A DNA stretch of 64,000 nucleotides from the NCBI GenBank assembly GCA_035699745.1, contig DASSPH010000099.1:129841-193840 (forward strand). The letters are read 5' to 3'. The translations under genes were made by a program, and so were the position numbers. Source of the DNA: Vicinamibacterales bacterium. GTDB taxonomy: Bacteria; Acidobacteriota; Vicinamibacteria; Vicinamibacterales; 2-12-FULL-66-21. Below the pieces are notes generated by a model, which ran no database searches, had not been told where the DNA came from, and worked only from the letters and a program-made list of their open reading frames with translations. The stretch's first letter is position 1. Each line of letters begins with the position of its first letter. This document shows positions 3,463-43,341 of this stretch, piece by piece.

Positions 3463-6317
3463 CTACCGTGACGCGGGCGCCGCCGCCTTCGGAACTTTGC
3501 CGAGGCTGATCAGATTCGCCATCAGCTGGTAGGCGCCGACGGTGCCGTACGGGAGCTGGCGCCAGAGACCCAGCCCGACATACAGCCACCGGCCCTTGCC
3601 AAACCGCGCTTCGACAAGCGCCCCGCCTTTCGTCCCAGGGTTGTACTCGAACGGATCCTGGAGCTGGACGAGGTCCTTGTATTGCGCGTCCTTCTCGCCG
3701 AGGAAGTAGAGGCCGCGCTCCTGCACCCAGCCGTCCCAGGCATCCTGCCGGATGCGGTTCGGGTAGGTGAACGCGTGGTGCTCCTTCTCGAGGATCTGCA
3801 CCGGCGCGGTCTCGTCGGTGACGCGGTTGCTGCTGACCAGCGCCGGATAGGGACCGTACTGCGCCTGGTTGAACTCCGCCGTCTTGTTGTACTGGACGAT
3901 CAGCGTGCCGCCGTCCTGCACGTACTTGATCAGGCGGTGGTTGTAGGCCTTGAGATCCTCGCGGCGCTCGTAGGCGCGAATGCCCAGCATGATCGTGTCG
4001 AACCGCGACAGGTTGCCGTAGGCGAGCTCGTCGCTGTCGATCATCGTCACCCGCACGCCGAGCTGATCGAGCGCCTGCGGCACGAGATCGCCGACGCCCA
4101 TCACATATCCCATGCGGATGTTCGGCGCGACGCCGACGTCCACGACCTTCACCGTCGTCGCCGCCGGGATCACCTTGTGCCGCCGCTGGATGTGCGGGTA
4201 CTCGATCACCTGGTACCCCTCGGTGAACTGCTCGGCGCCGGTGAGGTCGGGCGCCTTCGCCCCGGTGGCGCGCGCCTTCAGCGCGAACTGCCCCGGCGCG
4301 GGCCCGGCGGGCGGCGTCACCGTGAAGCGCACCGTGCTGGTCTCCCCTTCCGCCGAGAGCGAGATCGGCGCGGAGGCCGGCGCGACCCGCCAGCCGGCCG
4401 GAACCTCGAGCGCGATGCTGGCGGTCGCCGCCCCCTTGGTGTTGTTCTCGACCGTGACACGCACGTCCTTGCGCCGATCGACGCCCGCCGCGACCTTCAC
4501 CGGGACGATCATCACGTTCGGGGAGACGGTCAGCGACAGGCCGGGCACGACCTTCAGCTCCATGCGCTTCTCGCCCGTCGCGAGATCGCCGGCGTAGCGA
4601 TACTGCACCGGCATCTCGTGCGTCACGCCGACCCCCTTGACGTCGAACTCGAACTGCGCGCGGAACGGCGTCGGCCGGAACGGCAGTCCGTACGGCGAAT
4701 CCGGCTCCAGCTCGGCGCGCCCGGACTCGGGCAGCCGGACCCAGTACGGGTTGGTCAGCTTCGCGTTCGCCGGGATCCTGACGTCGGACGCGCAGGAGAA
4801 CGCCGGCGCGCTGCGCAGCGGACCGAGGTTCTGGCACGCCGCGCCGCCGTCGAAGCCGGTGAGCGTGACGCTCTTGATCGAGGCGCCTTCCGGTCCGCGA
4901 TTCGCGACGCTGGTGGTGACGCGAACCGGCTGATTCCCCATCACGATCCCGTCGTCCGCAATCGCGTCGATGCGAAGTCCCTGCGCCAGGACGATCGCCT
5001 GCTGGTACTGCTGCTCCTTCTGCGCCAGGCGGAAGTCGATCTCGTACCTCGCGAGGTCGCCCAGGCCCATCCCGCCGAGCCCCGACCGCAGCGCCCGCAC
5101 CGCGGTCAACCCCTGCAGCAGCGAAGGCAGCGTCACCGACGGATCCTGCGAGCCCATGAACGCCTTCTGCGCGTCGAGGCCGTGATTGGTGATCTGCGCC
5201 AGTCCCTCGCGCAGACCCGCCGGGGCGTTCGCGCCGGCGTACTGGGAGAGGCTGGCAAGCGTGGTGTCGATCCCCTCGAACAGCGACGTCTCGTCCTTGT
5301 TCCTCTGCGACTCGATCGTCGTCAGCGCCAGGCGGTAGCGCGCGCCGCTGGCGCCGCCGAAGTTCTGAATCGGCGACCGCCCCTGGCACTTGTGCATGCT
5401 CGCGGCCACGCTGCCGACCTCGCCGATCGTGCAGCCGATCAGCGGGTCGTACATCGACGTGTCGATGGTCGCGTACTTCGCGTTGGGATCCGGTGGAGGT
5501 GGAGCCGGGAGATCACCGCCAGCCGGCGGCTGTCCCGCCGCAGCCCGACCCTGGCCGGCGGGCGGAGGCGGACCGCCCCGTCCTCGTCCGCGTCCCCCAG
5601 GCCCGCCGGGCCCGCCCAGCCGGCCGCCGAATCCACCGCCGCCCGGCTGATACAGCTTCTTGATCTGCCAGGGGCGCAGTCCTTCTTTCAGCTGCTCCGG
5701 ATACTTCGTGGGATCGGCCGCCGCGGCGAACGCTTCCGCGGTGAGCGTCGCCGACACCATGTGGTGCTGCCCGCCGCCGGTCCCCGTCGGGTTCAAGGTG
5801 ACGACCACGTCGGGGCGGATCGTGCGGATCATGCGCACGAAGTCGCCGAGGATCTCGTCGTGCCCCCACTTCTGGAGCGTCTCCTGCGGGCTGAACGAGA
5901 AGCCGAAGTCGACGGCGCGCGTGAAGTACTGCTCCGCCCCGTCCCAGCGGTGCGCCTGCAGCAGTTCCTCGGTGCGCAGCACGCCGATGGCGTCGAACAG
6001 CTCCGGGCCGATCTCGTTCTGGCCGCCGTCGCCGCGCGTCGCGGTCAGCAGCGCGACGCGCATGCCCTGGCCGCGTGCGTGGAGGGCGAGGATCCCGGTG
6101 TTCTCGTCGTCGGGATGCGCCGTGGTGTGCATGAAGGTGCCGACGGTGGTGAGCCGCCGCAGCGCCAGGCCGAGCCCCACCTGCCCTCGTGCGTCCGTCA
6201 GCGGCTCGACGAAGAACTGCGGCGAGCGCTGCTGCGCTCTCGCACCGAAAGCCAGTGCCGAGACGGAAAGGGCCAGGACGCCCGACGCCAGAACGGACCG
6301 GGGAGCTTTCATGAGCA
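3463..6317 (-). CDS. PIG-L/LmbE-family deacetylase fused to a C-terminal ThuA/GATase1-like domain, with signal peptide
   Basis: True start MLMKAPRSVLASGVLALSVSALAFGA at 6317; the track merges it into a spurious 1985-aa ORF (3463..9420). Contains the HTTAHPDDE motif of PIG-L deacetylases. The C-terminal 250 aa (MGYVMGVGDLVPQALDQLGVRVTMIDSDEL...LIVQYNK) resemble the ThuA/class-I amidotransferase-like fold. A Gly/Pro-rich linker lies in the middle. Confidence 0.75.
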
Positions 6318-37198: not shown

Positions 37199-39817
37199 AT
37201 GGCGCGTCGCCACGACCCTTCGGATGACGAGTTTCGGGAAGAAGTCGAGTCGCACGTCGCGCTCGAGACCGACCGCCTGCTGGCCGAGGGCGTCAGCCCA
37301 GAGGAAGCCGCAATGGCGGCCCGGCGAAAGTTCGGGAACGTCACCCGTGTCCGGGAGAACTTCTACGAATCGCGGCGCGTGATGTGGTTCGAGGACCTGC
37401 GACATGACACGCGCTTTGCAGTGCGCTCCTTGCAACGCAGCCCCGCGTTTACAGCCGTGGCCCTTTTGACTCTGGCAATAGGCCTGGGCGCAAATACGGC
37501 GATCTTCAGCGTCGTCAATGCGGTTCTGCTGCGCCCACTTCCGTATAACGCGCCTGACCAGTTGGTCCTGCTGGAGCATCCGCCGCTTGGCGGGAGCCCC
37601 GCCTGGTTAAGAGACGCCTGGCACGCGCGATCGCGCACGCTGACGGAGTTCGCCGGCATCGAGCCGTCCGCGCCAGCGACACTCGTCGCCGGAATTCAGC
37701 CGATGCCTGTCAACGCTGCGCACGCCACGGCGAACTTCTTCGCACTGCTGGGCATCAAGGCTTCGCTCGGAAGGATCTTCGCCGAGACAGATACCCAGCC
37801 TGGGGCGCCGGCGGTCGCGGTGCTCAGCCACAGCTTCTGGATTCGGCAGTTTGATGCCAGTGCCGACACCATCGGCAAGAGCATCACGCTGACGGATGTA
37901 ACCTTGACGGGCGAGCCGCGCGTTATCATCGGCGTGCTCCCAGCCGATTTCCGCTTCCCCGTTGCGGACCCGCCTGGTGAAGCACCGATATTCGCGAGGA
38001 TGCAACCAGATGTCATCGTTCTCTCCCGGGATGACGCGTTTCAGCAGGTGATTGGAAGGCTCGCTCCCGGAACGACAGCGGCGAAGGCCTCAACCGAGTT
38101 GTCCGGCATCTTTGCCCAAGAAGCGTCCGCACGTTTTTCGGCGCGTTTCGTTGAGCGCACGCGTGTCATCGCAATGCCTCTTCAGGATCGCCTCGTCGGC
38201 AATGCCCGGTATCGGCTGCTGCTGCTCATGGGTGCCGTGGGCTGTGTTCTCCTCGTGGTGTGCGCCAACATCGCCAGCCTTCTGTTGGCGCGCATCACCG
38301 GACGCGGACCCGAGTTTGCCGTCCGCGCGGCGCTCGGCGCGCGGACCGGCCGCCTTGTACGCATGATCCTGACAGAGAACGTCCTCCTCGCCATTTTCGG
38401 CGGCGCAGTTGCACTGTTCCTCGCGTACTGGAGCAATGACGTGCTCCGCTCGCTGCTCGCAGGTCGTGTCTCCTACGTCGAAACCGTCGCACTTGACTGG
38501 CGGGTGTTGGCCTTCAATCTCGCCGTCGCCGCGGCTATGGGTGTGGTCTGCGGGCTCGCATCTCTCGCGACGATTTGGTCGACCCGGCACGCAGGGAGCA
38601 CGACCGCAGCTGGTCGATCCATCACCCGACGCCCGCGCCTAGGTTTGACCCTTGTGGCCGGGGAAGTCGCCGTCGTGTTCGTCTTAGTCTTGATGGCGGC
38701 GCTGTTGTCTCAGACGCTCTGGAACCTTCGTCACACCAGGCGAGGTTTTGACGCGAGCGGACTGCTGACCGCCGGGGTGATGCCGGGAGCGTCCGGCACC
38801 ATTCCCGAGTTGCAGAACCTGACCGTGACGTTCTTCGGCACGATCGTCGATCGCATCGCTCGAGAGCCGAATGTGGAATCGGTAGCGGCAGCGTCAACCG
38901 TGCCGTTCAGCGGTCCGGCTATGGGGATGTCCGGCGTGTCGGTCGTGGGCCGCCAGGCACCCGACAAGACCCCGCCAGTCTCTGTCGCGGCCGTCACACC
39001 GGGCTATTTCGCGACGATGCGGATCCGGTTGATAGGTGGCCGTGATTTCAACAGGGGGGATGTTCCGTCGCGAGACCGCGTCGCCATTGTCAACGAGGCT
39101 TTCTTGCGAGTGATCGCGTCGGCCCTGACACCTGGCACAGAGATCCAGTTTGGCCGCTCTCGCCTGACAGTAATCGGCATCGTCGAGAACACACCGGACA
39201 CGTCGCTCCGGCGACCGGCTCGGCCGTTTGTGTATCTCCCAATGGCTCAGACCATCGGCAGCCAATTCGCTTTCGGCCGGTTGATGATCCTAGTGCGCGC
39301 GCGTAGTGGCGACCCGGCCGCGCTGATCCCCACCCTGCGCAACACCGTCTGGAGCCTCGGACACGACATCGTGATAGATGACGTCAGCACGATGGACGAA
39401 CGGGTCGGCGCGGCAGTGCGCACGGAGCGGGACAGCGCGCTGTTGTTTGGAGTGCTAGGCGCCATCGCACTAGTCGTTGCCGTCGCCGGTGTGTACGGTG
39501 TCGTCGCGTACTCGGTTTCGCAGCGCACTCGGGAGATCGGGATTCGAACGGCTATCGGTGCGACTCATCGTCAGGTGGTGGCCGGCATCGTCCGAGAGTC
39601 GGTTTGGCCCGTCGCAATCGGGATAGGAATCGGGGCTGCCACCGCGGTCGTCGTCGTGCGCGCGATCGCGGGACTTCTTTTTGAAATTAGGCCCACGGAT
39701 CCGCCGACCTACGTCGGGACGGCCGTCGCTCTGACTCTTACGGCCTTGGCGGCAGCGTGGATTCCCGCACGGCGGGCTGCTGGGGTCGATCCGGTCACGG
39801 CACTTCGCGCTGAATAG
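37199..39817 (+). CDS. ABC transporter permease, FtsX-like duplicated (MacB-like) family
   Basis: 872 aa. Two FtsX-type 4-TM modules, each with a periplasmic domain; C-terminal IPARRAAGVDPVTALRAE. Starts 2 nt after the padR stop. Confidence 0.9.
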   Translation: MARRHDPSDDEFREEVESHVALETDRLLAEGVSPEEAAMAARRKFGNVTRVRENFYESRRVMWFEDLRHDTRFAVRSLQRSPAFTAVALLTLAIGLGANTAIFSVVNAVLLRPLPYNAPDQLVLLEHPPLGGSPAWLRDAWHARSRTLTEFAGIEPSAPATLVAGIQPMPVNAAHATANFFALLGIKASLGRIFAETDTQPGAPAVAVLSHSFWIRQFDASADTIGKSITLTDVTLTGEPRVIIGVLPADFRFPVADPPGEAPIFARMQPDVIVLSRDDAFQQVIGRLAPGTTAAKASTELSGIFAQEASARFSARFVERTRVIAMPLQDRLVGNARYRLLLLMGAVGCVLLVVCANIASLLLARITGRGPEFAVRAALGARTGRLVRMILTENVLLAIFGGAVALFLAYWSNDVLRSLLAGRVSYVETVALDWRVLAFNLAVAAAMGVVCGLASLATIWSTRHAGSTTAAGRSITRRPRLGLTLVAGEVAVVFVLVLMAALLSQTLWNLRHTRRGFDASGLLTAGVMPGASGTIPELQNLTVTFFGTIVDRIAREPNVESVAAASTVPFSGPAMGMSGVSVVGRQAPDKTPPVSVAAVTPGYFATMRIRLIGGRDFNRGDVPSRDRVAIVNEAFLRVIASALTPGTEIQFGRSRLTVIGIVENTPDTSLRRPARPFVYLPMAQTIGSQFAFGRLMILVRARSGDPAALIPTLRNTVWSLGHDIVIDDVSTMDERVGAAVRTERDSALLFGVLGAIALVVAVAGVYGVVAYSVSQRTREIGIRTAIGATHRQVVAGIVRESVWPVAIGIGIGAATAVVVVRAIAGLLFEIRPTDPPTYVGTAVALTLTALAAAWIPARRAAGVDPVTALRAE

Positions 39818-39859
39818 CCCGCGTGCCGATGGTTCGCCTCGGGACGTGAACCTCGGCCC

Positions 39860-39968
39860 TTGTAGACCCCCTCTGAAGCGACCTCAATTCTGAGTATACG
39901 CGACTGGGGTATATTGTTATTGTATATAATGCGGCGAGATGCGCTATATCAACTATCATAATATACCC
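39860..39968 (+). promoter_or_regulatory. AT-rich segment (about 30% GC) with TATA-like repeats upstream of the AbiEi-like gene; likely promoter/operator and island boundary
   Basis: ...ctcaattctgagtatacgcgactggggTATATTGTTATTGTATATAATGcggcgagatgcgcTATATCAACTATCATAATATAccc. Contains a perfect TATAAT (39924-39929). Contrasts sharply with the 70% GC flanks. Confidence 0.45.
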
Positions 39969-39970
39969 AC

Positions 39971-40789
39971 ATGGCTGCAGACGATCGGAAGGTGGTCGCC
40001 GCGCTCGCGAGAGCCGCAAAAGGCGGTGTGGTCTCTCTACCCGCCGCACTTCACGCAATTGACGGCCCGCCCGCAAAGGCGGCGCTTCGACTTCGCCGGC
40101 TCATCCGCCACGGTTGGATCGAACGGCTGCGGCGGGGCCTTTACTTAGTCAAGCCGCTCAGCGCGGCTCCCGACCAAGCGGCTATCCCAGAGGACCCGTG
40201 GGTGCTGGCTCGCGAGGTCTTCTCCCCCTGTTACATCGGCGGATGGAGCGCAGCCGAACACTGGGAGCTGACCGAACAGATTTTCCGATCGACGTTGGTT
40301 GTGACCGCTGTGCCTGCTCGAAAGACCGAGCTGCGTATTGGGGGCTACGACTTCCGCGTGTTCCGCGTTCACCGAACTCGTCTCGCTGCCGGAGTCGTCA
40401 ACGTCTGGCGAGGGCCCGAACGGGTCCAGGTCTCTGGACTCGAGCGGACAATCGCGGACGGTCTCCGAGATCCGGAGCTTGTCGGCGGAGGTCGCCATCT
40501 GGTGCAGCTTCTCCGCGCATACGGAGAGCATAAGGACCGCAATTTCGTCCGCTTGCTTGATGTCGCCCGACATACTGCTTCCGGCGCGGCTTGGAAGCGG
40601 CTGGGGTTTCTAAGCGAACGCCTCTGGCCCGCAGAAGTCAAGGTCGTCACCGCCGCCGGCCGCCATCTCACGGCAGGCTACGTCCGTCTCGACCCTGGCA
40701 ATAGACACCATGGAAAGCTCTCCAAGCGGTGGCGGCTCTGGATCAACGTGCCGGTTTCTGACCTGACATCCGAGCCGGCCGCTTCATGA
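39971..40789 (+). CDS. AbiEi-like antitoxin / transcriptional regulator (type IV TA)
   Basis: 272 aa. N-terminal wHTH-like region; C-terminal domain typical of AbiEi/COG5340-like proteins. Stop overlaps the start of the following nucleotidyltransferase gene (ATGA). Confidence 0.7.
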   Translation: MAADDRKVVAALARAAKGGVVSLPAALHAIDGPPAKAALRLRRLIRHGWIERLRRGLYLVKPLSAAPDQAAIPEDPWVLAREVFSPCYIGGWSAAEHWELTEQIFRSTLVVTAVPARKTELRIGGYDFRVFRVHRTRLAAGVVNVWRGPERVQVSGLERTIADGLRDPELVGGGRHLVQLLRAYGEHKDRNFVRLLDVARHTASGAAWKRLGFLSERLWPAEVKVVTAAGRHLTAGYVRLDPGNRHHGKLSKRWRLWINVPVSDLTSEPAAS

Positions 40790-42182
40790 TTGCCAAGCAA
40801 GACATCCTCGATCGCGCTGCCGAATGGCACTTGCGCCCGGAAGTGGTCGAAAAGGACTACGTGCTCGGATGGCTGCTCGCAGGCGTTGCCGCCCTGCCGA
40901 CTCTCTCTGGATTTTCAAGGGCGGCACATGCGTCAAGAAGTGTTTCTTCGAGACATATCGTTTCTCGGAGGACCTGGACTTCTCCCTGCGGCCGGATGCG
41001 CCGTATACGCAGGACGAACTCGTGGCGCAGCTTCGAGAACTGACTGCGCACGTCGCAGAGCTGACCGGCCTGGAGTTTCCGGCTGACCTCGTCGATGTGA
41101 AAACGAGGCAGAACAAGCAAGGGCTACCGACGTTCGAGGGTCGCGTCGCCTATCGCGGTCCCCTCGAGTATCCAGGCTCTCCCAAGATTCGCTTCGACAT
41201 CACGCGACACGAGCCGGTCATCGACGATCCGGCCGAGCGGCCGATTCTGCATCCCTACCCTGACGCGTTGCCCGAGGGCGTCGCCGTGCTCACGTATTCG
41301 TTCGAGGAGTTGCTCGCCGAAAAGACTCGCGCTTTGCTCGAGCGATCGCGGCCTCGCGATTTGTACGATGTCGTTCACCTTCTCGAGAATGCGCCTACGG
41401 ATCTCAATCTGGTCGACGTTCGCAGGCTGTTCGCAAAGAAATGCGCGGGCAAAGCCATCGCGCTGCCTTCGTCGATCGAATTGATCGGCATCGTTGCCGG
41501 CGACGCCGAACTGCGATCCGAGTGGGCGAGTATGCTTGCGCACCAATTGCCAGCATTGCCGGACTTGGACGCGATGCTCTCGAGGCTGCCTGCGGTTCTT
41601 GGCTGGTTGGATGCTCCGTCAAAGCCCCTTCCCGAGACGCAGCTGCCTCGAGTGCCCGTTGGCGAGGGCCTTAGCCCAATCGTTGCACCGGGGATTCGGT
41701 ACTGGGGCGCCGGCTCGCCACTCGAGTCGATCCGGTTCGCGGCGACCAACCGTCTCATGCTCGAGTTCGAATACCACGGCAAGCACCGGCAGGTGGAACC
41801 GTATTCGGTCCGACGAGCTGGCACTGGGAACGTCCTTCTGTACGCTTGGGAACTCGCAGACGGTCACATGAAGGCGTACAAGGTCGACGAAATGTCCGCT
41901 GTCAAGGCGATGAGCGCCACGTTCTCACCGCGATACCAGGTCGAGATCTCGGCGTATGGACCAATACAGGCGTCTTCCACGGCAGCGCATCCGAGAATCA
42001 CGACACCGCGGCAACCGCGCCCCCATTCCGCGCGTCGCGGACCAACCTATATATTTCAGTGCTCGTATTGCGGGAAACGGTTTGAACACTCCACCAATGA
42101 CTCAGCCCTCCGGGAGCACAAAACGCAATCGGGCTGGAAATGCTCGGGACGACGAGGGTACTTAGTCGACGCACGATATTGA
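40786..42182 (+). pseudogene. AbiEii/AbiGii-family nucleotidyltransferase toxin with C-terminal WYL-like and zinc-finger extension; apparent frameshift at (CT)4 near 40901-40908
   Basis: Frame 1 from ATG 40786 gives MIAKQDILDRAAEWHLRPEVVEKDYVLGWLLAGVAALPTLS, the conserved AbiEii N-terminus. Conserved FKGGTCVKKCFFETYRFSEDLDFS continues in frame 0 (track ORF 40824..42182). The junction is actCTCTCTCTgg. The C-terminal 150 aa add R-x-V-x-PY...LLYAWELA...KAYKVDEM (WYL-like) and CSYCGKRFEHSTNDSALREH (C2H2-like). Confidence 0.6.
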
Positions 42183-43208
42183 CTAAACGGTGCGGCGCCA
42201 CTCAAGCCATCTGCTGGCCAAGATCTGGTAATTCCGCGGCGGATGATCTCTGGCACTTTCCCCATGAACGATTCCGAACATCACCGAGTCGCTGGCGGTA
42301 AGAAATCGAAGAAGAATTCCGGTCCACGGGGCCAAGGGAGGAACTCGCCCCGAACCTCCGAGCGCTTTCCTTCGTGGCCTTTGACCCTGTCGTAAAACGT
42401 CGAATCCCTTGGGCCAGGTAGAAGTACGAGATGGCGTCCCATGAGAACTGCAACGCCACCGTCCAGAATTCCTGGCTCCCGAATAATTACCAGGGCTCGA
42501 GCGTCCTTTGGGCTGCTGGGAAACGCGAATCCCGAAGAGCGACGGCGCGGACGTTCGGATGTCGATCTTCTGTCGAACGACTTCATAGGCGGGATCGAGG
42601 ACAAATCGGTATCCGAACTTCGCAAACGCGACGATACATGCTGCCCGTAACCAAGACACAGCCGCGTGGGAAGAGTTGTATTGCTCACGAAATTGCAGCT
42701 TGACATTCCAGTCGCGATCTCCACTCTCCACCAAGCGATTCAGCTCGGCGACGAACGCGGCGTGCGCTGTAGGGGAGTTACGATTCTCATCTCCAAACAA
42801 CTGCATACCCGTCGGCCCGGCTTCCAGCGTCATGTTGACTTGGGTTTGGCCGAGCGCCACCCGAACCCGCTGATCCCGCAGAACACCCGGAGGGTCGTCT
42901 TCGTAACGGGCTGCAATACTCGCGTGAGAGTCCAACATCGATCCCGCGGTGTGATTCCACCTGGCGCACGTCAACGCGATCGCGCGACCACCGGCGAACT
43001 CCGGCGGCGCATGTTCGGCAGTCAGTTGATTCGTTCCAACGGCGGGCCGCATGAAAGCCCGAAAAAGGGTCGGCGTGACGCAAAGGGGGCAGATGTAGAC
43101 GGGACCAATGTGCGGCGGCAGGACGTCGCGGACCACCGATGGGCAAGTCTGCGCGAACGCCTCCGCCCCGCGGTCGAACCACGCAAGGCGCGTTTGCAGC
43201 TTGGGCAT
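42183..43208 (-). CDS. HNH-nuclease-like protein (N-terminal His-Me finger motif), low-GC
   Basis: YICPLCVTPTLF...LTAEHAPPEFAGGRAIALTCARWNHTAG fits CxxC...EH..P..GG....C..N. Local GC is about 57%, versus 70% in the flanks. The C-terminal third is low-complexity and may not be genuine. The stop abuts the AbiEii stop (convergent). Confidence 0.45.
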   Translation of the reverse strand: MPKLQTRLAWFDRGAEAFAQTCPSVVRDVLPPHIGPVYICPLCVTPTLFRAFMRPAVGTNQLTAEHAPPEFAGGRAIALTCARWNHTAGSMLDSHASIAARYEDDPPGVLRDQRVRVALGQTQVNMTLEAGPTGMQLFGDENRNSPTAHAAFVAELNRLVESGDRDWNVKLQFREQYNSSHAAVSWLRAACIVAFAKFGYRFVLDPAYEVVRQKIDIRTSAPSLFGIRVSQQPKGRSSPGNYSGARNSGRWRCSSHGTPSRTSTWPKGFDVLRQGQRPRRKALGGSGRVPPLAPWTGILLRFLTASDSVMFGIVHGESARDHPPRNYQILASRWLEWRRTV

Positions 43209-43247
43209 TCCTATTCAGCACTGATCGTACCTCGAAGCGTCCTCTTC

Positions 43248-43280
43248 GCAATCGCTCACCAAAATCCCTCACGCTTGACA
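43248..43280 (+). promoter_or_regulatory. Conserved direct-repeat motif plus TTGACA upstream of padR (copy 2)
   Basis: GCAATCGCTCACCAAAATCCCTCACGC immediately followed by TTGACA (43275-43280), 61 nt before the ATG at 43342. Confidence 0.5.
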
Positions 43281-43341
43281 GCGCCGCGCCGGACGGAGGA
43301 AACTTTCCGCTCCCATAGTTCGTCTATGCAAAGAGCGGCTG

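Follow-up and report, generated by a model that had tools for sequence, protein, structure and literature searches.

AbiE is an abortive-infection, i.e., phage-defence, toxin–antitoxin (TA) system (Dy et al. 2014, PMC3985639; bioRxiv 10.64898/2026.01.19.700257). The toxin of this family blocks translation by adding nucleotides to the 3′ ends of tRNA, and the antitoxin AbiEi represses the operon and inactivates the toxin by inducing its auto-phosphorylation (bioRxiv 10.64898/2026.01.19.700257; PMC11375011). The AbiE systems of S. agalactiae and Lactococcus are bicistronic with a 4-nt overlap (PMC3985639). Their AbiEi is of the COG5340 type with a winged-helix N-domain, and their toxin is a DUF1814 nucleotidyltransferase (NTase) of about 287 aa that carries GG-x15-DhD with the motif II Arg, K..A...R, and +DxxD, in line with motifs I–IV as defined by Dy et al. 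2014 (PMC3985639). Inverted repeats upstream of abiEi act as operators in S. agalactiae (PMC3985639). MenT3/TglT and MenT4 of M. tuberculosis (PMC7450476, PMC10435456, PMC11375011) are likewise NTase toxins, and some of their MenA antitoxins are unrelated to AbiEi.

The locus described in this article lies in a 64-kb stretch of a Vicinamibacterales metagenome-assembled genome (MAG), herein called the window, and is an AbiE module with a toxin pseudogene. Like the S. agalactiae and Lactococcus systems, it is bicistronic, with an AbiEi-type gene directly upstream of the toxin gene and a short overlap between the two. The antitoxin/transcriptional regulator gene abiEi (39971–40789, plus strand, 272 aa) is intact, and its product matches Pfam AbiEi_4 (1.1e-6) and AbiEi_1 (2.7e-4) as well as the PADLOC model AbiEi PDLC02271 (4.8e-67). 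Its stop codon shares bases with the abiEii ATG at 40786 in the sequence ATGA (40786–40789), and the same 4-nt overlap occurs in three related loci (L018, L046, and L047). An imperfect inverted repeat (39907–39968; 27-nt arms, 74% complementary, 8-nt spacer) in an AT-rich stretch lies directly 5′ of the abiEi start and is, by analogy with the S. agalactiae operators, a candidate AbiEi operator/promoter region. An uninterrupted toxin ORF that includes the N-terminal helices is present in L046 and L047, and in the window it is broken by a −1 shift at 40900/40901. The intact allele matches the PADLOC model AbiEii PDLC02317 at 4.9e-121 and contains the AbiE motifs hG[G/S]-x15-DhD with the motif II Arg, K..A...R, and +DxxD; an NCBIfam search of four proteins returned no matches. 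Hence, the sequence and fold hallmarks of the family are found with the exception of an uninterrupted toxin ORF, and the locus differs from the S. agalactiae and Lactococcus systems in three respects: a 4-nt deletion splits the toxin ORF, the intact form has 466 aa and adds a C-terminal WYL-like domain and a CCHC zinc ribbon, and the host is an uncultured member of the Acidobacteriota. By analogy, an intact module would be expected to work by the family mechanism, that is, tRNA 3′-end addition held in check by AbiEi repression and toxin auto-phosphorylation.

The predicted structure of the intact protein (AF2 model) shows the MenT/AbiEii nucleotidyltransferase fold. Its best structural matches are the M. 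tuberculosis toxins, with MenT4 found by Foldseek at E = 2e-8 (6y56) and MenT3/TglT at target-normalised TM scores of 0.64–0.66 (about 0.65 for 6j7p/6y5u). The biochemical activity is likely to be shared as well, namely tRNA 3′-end nucleotide addition neutralised by antitoxin-induced auto-phosphorylation. The sequence identity to MenT3 and MenT4 is, however, just 15–19%, and the MenT toxins are without the WYL and zinc-ribbon extension.

The toxin gene of the window is split over two reading frames. Its 5′ segment (40786–40899, plus strand) comprises native codons 1–38, with codon starts at 1 mod 3, and encodes two conserved N-terminal helices. The remainder (40902–42182, plus strand) encodes residues 41–466 of the intact protein and the stop codon in frame 0 mod 3, herein frame B, and contains the NTase core with motifs I–IV, the WYL-like domain (about 41721–41951, plus strand), and the CCHC zinc ribbon (about 42042–42179, plus strand). 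Reading from ATG 40786 gives MIAKQDILDRAAEWHLRPEVVEKDYVLGWLLAGVAALPTLS, followed by out-of-frame residues up to a stop at 41043; the ORF open from the coupled start of the deletion allele (40786–41043, plus strand) has 85 aa, 38 native and 47 out-of-frame. An earlier note on this DNA had placed the N-terminal segment MIAKQDILDRAAEWHLRPEVVEKDYVLGWLLAGVAALP in frame 1 and the conserved core SLWIFKGGTCVKKCFFETYRFSEDLDFS in frame 0, that is, −1 relative to the N-terminal frame, and the ORF reading, tblastn, and the GC profile all agree with it. With the intact allele as tblastn query, the window splits into q1–41 (frame 1) and q38–466 (frame 3), and the codon-position GC pattern changes over at about 40900. 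The frame-B product matches Pfam AbiEii PF08843 (1.4e-37) and is identical to the intact protein P0121 from residue 41 onward. The same note had considered that homologues might start internally in the downstream frame; the N-terminal segment is present in 107 of 107 aligned homologues, with no internal starts, and the frameshift call hence stands.

The frame is broken by a 4-nt deletion, with TGTC missing between 40900 and 40901 (plus strand) in the alignment to L046 and L047. The intact alleles read CCG ATG TCC TCT CTC TGG (P M S S L W) where the window reads CCG A^CT CTC TCT GG. The gap has a single possible placement without flanking microhomology and sits immediately 5′ of, and outside, the (CT)4 tract CTCTCTCT (40901–40908, plus strand), which encodes Ser-Leu-(W) in the intact frame. 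The frame switch thus falls within 40895–40915, where it had been expected, but not at the CT tract itself, to which it had been attributed. Both L046 (SRR26663107) and L047 (SRR34018707) are Logan contigs from other sequencing runs that carry the same flanking genes as the window and were compared with it over 4–5 kb. TGTC after 40900 is the sole difference between L047 and the window over 4,033 nt, and L046 differs by the extra TGTC and by one SNP at 42637. The two contigs encode P0121, a 466-aa intact ORF (...LAGVAALP-MSSL-WIFKGG...) that shares the 90%-identity cluster of the window's public toxin record (P0001), and abiEi is identical between the deletion allele and the intact alleles. 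A look-up of contigs encoding the identical AbiEi yielded no samples beyond the three runs.

The nearest relatives of P0001 (85–74% identity) are all single ORFs, almost all of them exactly 466 aa long, and their junction consists of LP, four residues, and W. At the DNA level, in a comparison made without P0002 (the closest outgroup), the outgroup L018 reads CCA ATG TCC TCT CTC TGG at the junction. As the outgroup homologues are all single ORFs with four residues from LP to W, the deletion in the window is the derived state. At SNP 42637, L046 keeps the family-consensus Tyr and both L047 and the window have Cys, which places the window on the most derived branch. The deletion in abiEii is very recent, and one 4-bp loss separates broken and intact alleles across more than 4 kb. 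The idea of a decayed toxin, raised in the earlier note as one of several options, is supported by this comparison: the intact alleles of the two other runs differ by the 4-nt indel, and the outgroups are single ORFs. An ancestral (CT)6 that lost two units (466 aa, PTLSLW) was considered and rejected, as the intact alleles read ATG TCC TCT CTC TGG and contain (CT)4.

It is unlikely that the gap is a sequencing or consensus artefact, in which the organism has the intact TGTC gene and the four bases were lost in base-calling, assembly, or polishing of one sample. In favour of such an origin, the remaining gene is without flaw and does not differ from the intact allele, the deletion allele is confined to the MAG and the data of one run (SRR25158179), and a low-complexity CT run adjoins the deletion site. 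The Logan assembly of SRR25158179, however, matches the window at every base over 5,541 and 6,439 nt and lacks TGTC as well. The Logan assembler differs from that of the MAG, so that the agreement base for base over 6.4 kb is one between separate assemblies, although not necessarily between separate data, as the MAG and the Logan contig possibly derive from the same reads. Because the deletion allele is reproduced exactly, an assembler artefact is unlikely, and the sequencing error that had been suggested for the CT tract is unlikely as well. A codon-usage frame scan, which is informative outside the island around the module alone and blind inside it because codon usage is atypical there, found every same-strand frame change to be a normal gene boundary and thus no other frameshift candidates in the remaining 64-kb window. 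Within the island, the 1-nt frameshift of an HNH-like neighbour recurs in three separate runs; real frameshifts therefore do occur there. To our knowledge, a 4-nt deletion that is neither part of a homopolymer nor a repeat unit is also not a typical short-read or HiFi error. We infer that the sampled population truly carries this mutation and that it did not arise at the level of the reads.

CT-dinucleotide tracts phase-vary outer-membrane protein genes of Helicobacter pylori in their 5′ coding region, and the window likewise has a CT run near the 5′ coding end, beside the frame break. Slipped-strand phase variation had been proposed for this site as one option, with (CT)5 restoring PTLSLWIFKGG. 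In a simulation, (CT)5 instead leads into the third frame (...PTLSLDFQGRH...), which runs into a stop after 100 codons, and the ORF is restored solely by (CT)3 (PTLWIFKGG, 464 aa), (CT)6 (PTLSLWIFKGG, 466 aa), or a 1-nt insertion. For the deletion allele, losing one CT unit, to (CT)3, thus reopens the ORF and gaining one, to (CT)5, does not; for the intact allele, a change by one unit in either direction puts the gene out of frame. The repeat has the same length in the intact and broken alleles, (CT)4 being present in the window, L017/L048, L046, and L047. The CT tract therefore did not slip, and no CT-number variants were seen among the alleles compared. Unlike in H. pylori-type phase variation, the window's tract is short (four units), unconserved, and at chance level, and the deletion beside it is a non-repeat one of 4 nt. 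One (CT)4 tract is observed in the window against 1.45 expected, with at least one in 77 of 100 shuffles. The repeat length in homologues, which the earlier note had suggested as a check, speaks against phase variation as well: (CT)4 is missing from most relatives and, among the 38 with an in-frame junction, occurs at this position solely in L018, L046, and L047. A short repeat beside a frame break is no evidence of slippage, and near-identical alleles from other runs settled the question without reads.

It is therefore highly improbable that the CT tract is a reversible ON/OFF slipped-strand switch, or that ribosomes shift −1/+2 on CUC UCU. CT-repeat phase variation does occur in other bacteria, and a deletion allele reduced to (CT)3 would be back in frame at the cost of two linker residues, in a region that is variable. 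For recoding, the tRNA-Leu on CUC 40903–40905 could in principle re-pair with CUC 40905–40907. The indel, however, is TGTC and no CT unit, and the other frameshifted relative considered for comparison (L010) shifts the opposite way, at a G-run. A programmed ribosomal frameshift was rejected: an X XXY YYZ slippery heptamer is absent from 40895–40920, the RNA structure downstream of the junction is nothing unusual (fold z = −0.06), and the split is not conserved in the homologues, all of which are single ORFs. There is a very slight chance that the OFF state of the deletion allele is reversible, in that the loss of a CT unit or a rare +2/−1 slip would restore a toxin two residues shorter; if true, this would offer an antitoxin-only population a low-frequency route back to a WYL-sensor AbiEii activity.

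The preferred reading, which we hold to be probable, is a real and recent 4-bp deletion that gives a toxin-null AbiEii allele with AbiEi intact. The TGTC loss falls into the variable linker that leads from the N-terminal helices to strand β1, and it shifts the frame by −1. From the coupled ATG 40786, ribosomes would make 38 native and 47 junk residues and halt at 41043. The NTase core, the WYL-like domain, and the zinc ribbon stay open in the other frame, the mutation being presumably too young for further decay. This frame-B remainder has no coupled start and no good ribosome-binding site, and its product would be without the invariant N-terminal helices. Hence an active toxin is most likely not made, and the antitoxin/repressor AbiEi stays intact.

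The importance of the lost segment can be appreciated from its conservation. Residues 1–31 contain 8 invariant and 15 near-invariant positions among the 107 full-length homologues, the invariant ones being E13, V21, E22, K23, D24, L27, W29, and L31. The linker 37–42, the site of the deletion, is variable among the same 107 homologues. In the AF2 model of the intact allele (pLDDT 88.6), confident helices 4–14 and 18–36 pack before β1, and a short turn (38–41) leads into β1 (WIFK) and the GG motif. The family profile aligns to the solved AbiEii-type chain 9hlo_B at E = 1e-12, with 9hlo_B residue 26 opposite profile position 23; as the alignment starts at this residue, 9hlo_B has the same N-terminal element. 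Because the lost N-terminal helices hold the eight invariant residues, conservation suggests that the allele is most likely toxin-null. The catalytic motifs are untouched and all lie 3′ of the break in frame B (GG47–48, x15, DLD64–66 with R60; K181..A184...R188; RDLYD192–196), in keeping with a very young mutation. The complete absence of lesions from the 1,281 nt downstream would also suit an artefact or a truncated protein that is still expressed.

An N-terminally truncated toxin, translated from a frame-B start and keeping some NTase activity or a regulatory or decoy role, is quite unlikely. Two in-frame ATGs lie 5′ of the junction (40824 and 40869), and a product from either would contain the four catalytic motifs, the WYL-like domain, and the zinc ribbon; the Pfam AbiEii model, moreover, begins at residue 30. 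Neither ATG, however, is preceded by a convincing ribosome-binding site (AAGGA lies 13 nt ahead of ATG 40869), and translation coupled to abiEi proceeds in the other frame. The product would also be deprived of residues 1–31 with their 8 invariant positions and of two helices that are also found in the solved toxin, and an internal start is used in 0 of the full-length homologues.

In the public annotation, the deletion allele appears as an ordinary CDS. The record HET7698658.1 (P0001; 40869–42182, plus strand), 437 aa from an internal-start call, is 100% identical to the frame-B reading and comes from a Vicinamibacterales MAG. The record opens with 11 residues (MAARRRCRPAD) that come from reading the N-terminal coding region out of frame. 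The Pfam AbiEii model starting at residue 30 may explain why the truncation went unflagged. The 437-aa record hides a frameshifted pseudogene, and counting HET7698658.1 as a functional AbiEii overcounts in defence-system censuses.

The deletion sits in surroundings that show decay of their own. A convergent HNH_5-like gene (42281–43208, minus strand), identified by homologue comparison, is a pseudogene in all three alleles. Joining of its two frames gives a product that homologues of 304–320 aa cover colinearly to 97–99%. It contains a 1-nt insertion at about 42504–42512 (CCCAAAGGAC, minus strand), a Cys→Trp change at 42957–42959 in a CxxC zinc motif, and a Tyr/Cys polymorphism at 42636–42638. 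Searches of the HNH-like pseudogene itself against Pfam and PADLOC gave no matches, and an NCBI protein record for it was not found. As its frameshift is common to all three alleles, it is older than the abiEii deletion, and the island was hence already decaying before the toxin was hit. The AbiE module is flanked by two gene pairs, each of a PadR gene and a MacB/FtsX permease gene. A lower GC content (0.56–0.65, compared with 0.69 for the window) and a weak host-type codon-usage signal mark the segment at about 37200–43300, which comprises the upstream MacB/FtsX permease gene, the AbiE module, and the HNH pseudogene. This composition is consistent with a horizontally acquired or otherwise atypical segment.

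Decay is frequent in this family: disrupted abiEii copies are found in 6 of the 15 assessable loci of species-representative genomes (16 in total), and frameshifts, stops, or 5′ remnants occur in the relatives L008, L010, L011, L014, L015, L016, L038, and L041. One of them, L010 (positions 4100–4150; Chthoniobacterales MAG JBBSPM010000011.1), encodes a 38%-identical AbiEii homologue with a separate frameshift. Here TGGGGTTTTC, directly ahead of VFKGG, contains a surplus G; the site is a few codons away from the break in the window, and the shift goes in the opposite direction. A hot spot common to the window and L010 was considered and rejected, as the L010 change is an extra G in a G-run; because it shifts the opposite way, no common mechanism applies, and the proximity would be a coincidence or reflect a general preference for early knock-outs. 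The abiEii deletion allele is ordinary TA decay and not a genetic switch. As in other decayed TA modules, the toxin is disrupted, the antitoxin is intact, and the neighbouring defence-type HNH gene has decayed too; unlike them, the window was caught at a polymorphic stage, with alleles set apart over 4 kb by nothing but the deletion. It presents a clean, dated example of the first step of TA decay, the toxin knocked out and the antitoxin kept, in an uncultured soil acidobacterium, and has little significance for biology at large.

A more interesting by-product is the architecture of the toxin subfamily itself. Its C terminus (window 41721–42179, residues about 314–466) consists of a WYL domain and a CCHC zinc ribbon. 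The WYL domain has Foldseek matches to DriD, PafBC, BrxR, and CapW and a PADLOC WYL match at 3e-6, and the zinc-ribbon residues C427, C430, H446, and C454 are invariant in the 107 homologues. In the searchable literature, an AbiEii–WYL fusion appears in incidental co-mentions alone, with no description, and the architecture thus seems undescribed there. The arrangement suggests a ligand-sensing, possibly ssDNA-sensing, toxin. It is widespread, with more than 100 full-length homologues of 460–475 aa that carry the extension in Acidobacteriota, Gemmatimonadota, and other phyla, and a ribbon-less form of the AbiEii homologue has roughly 395 aa.
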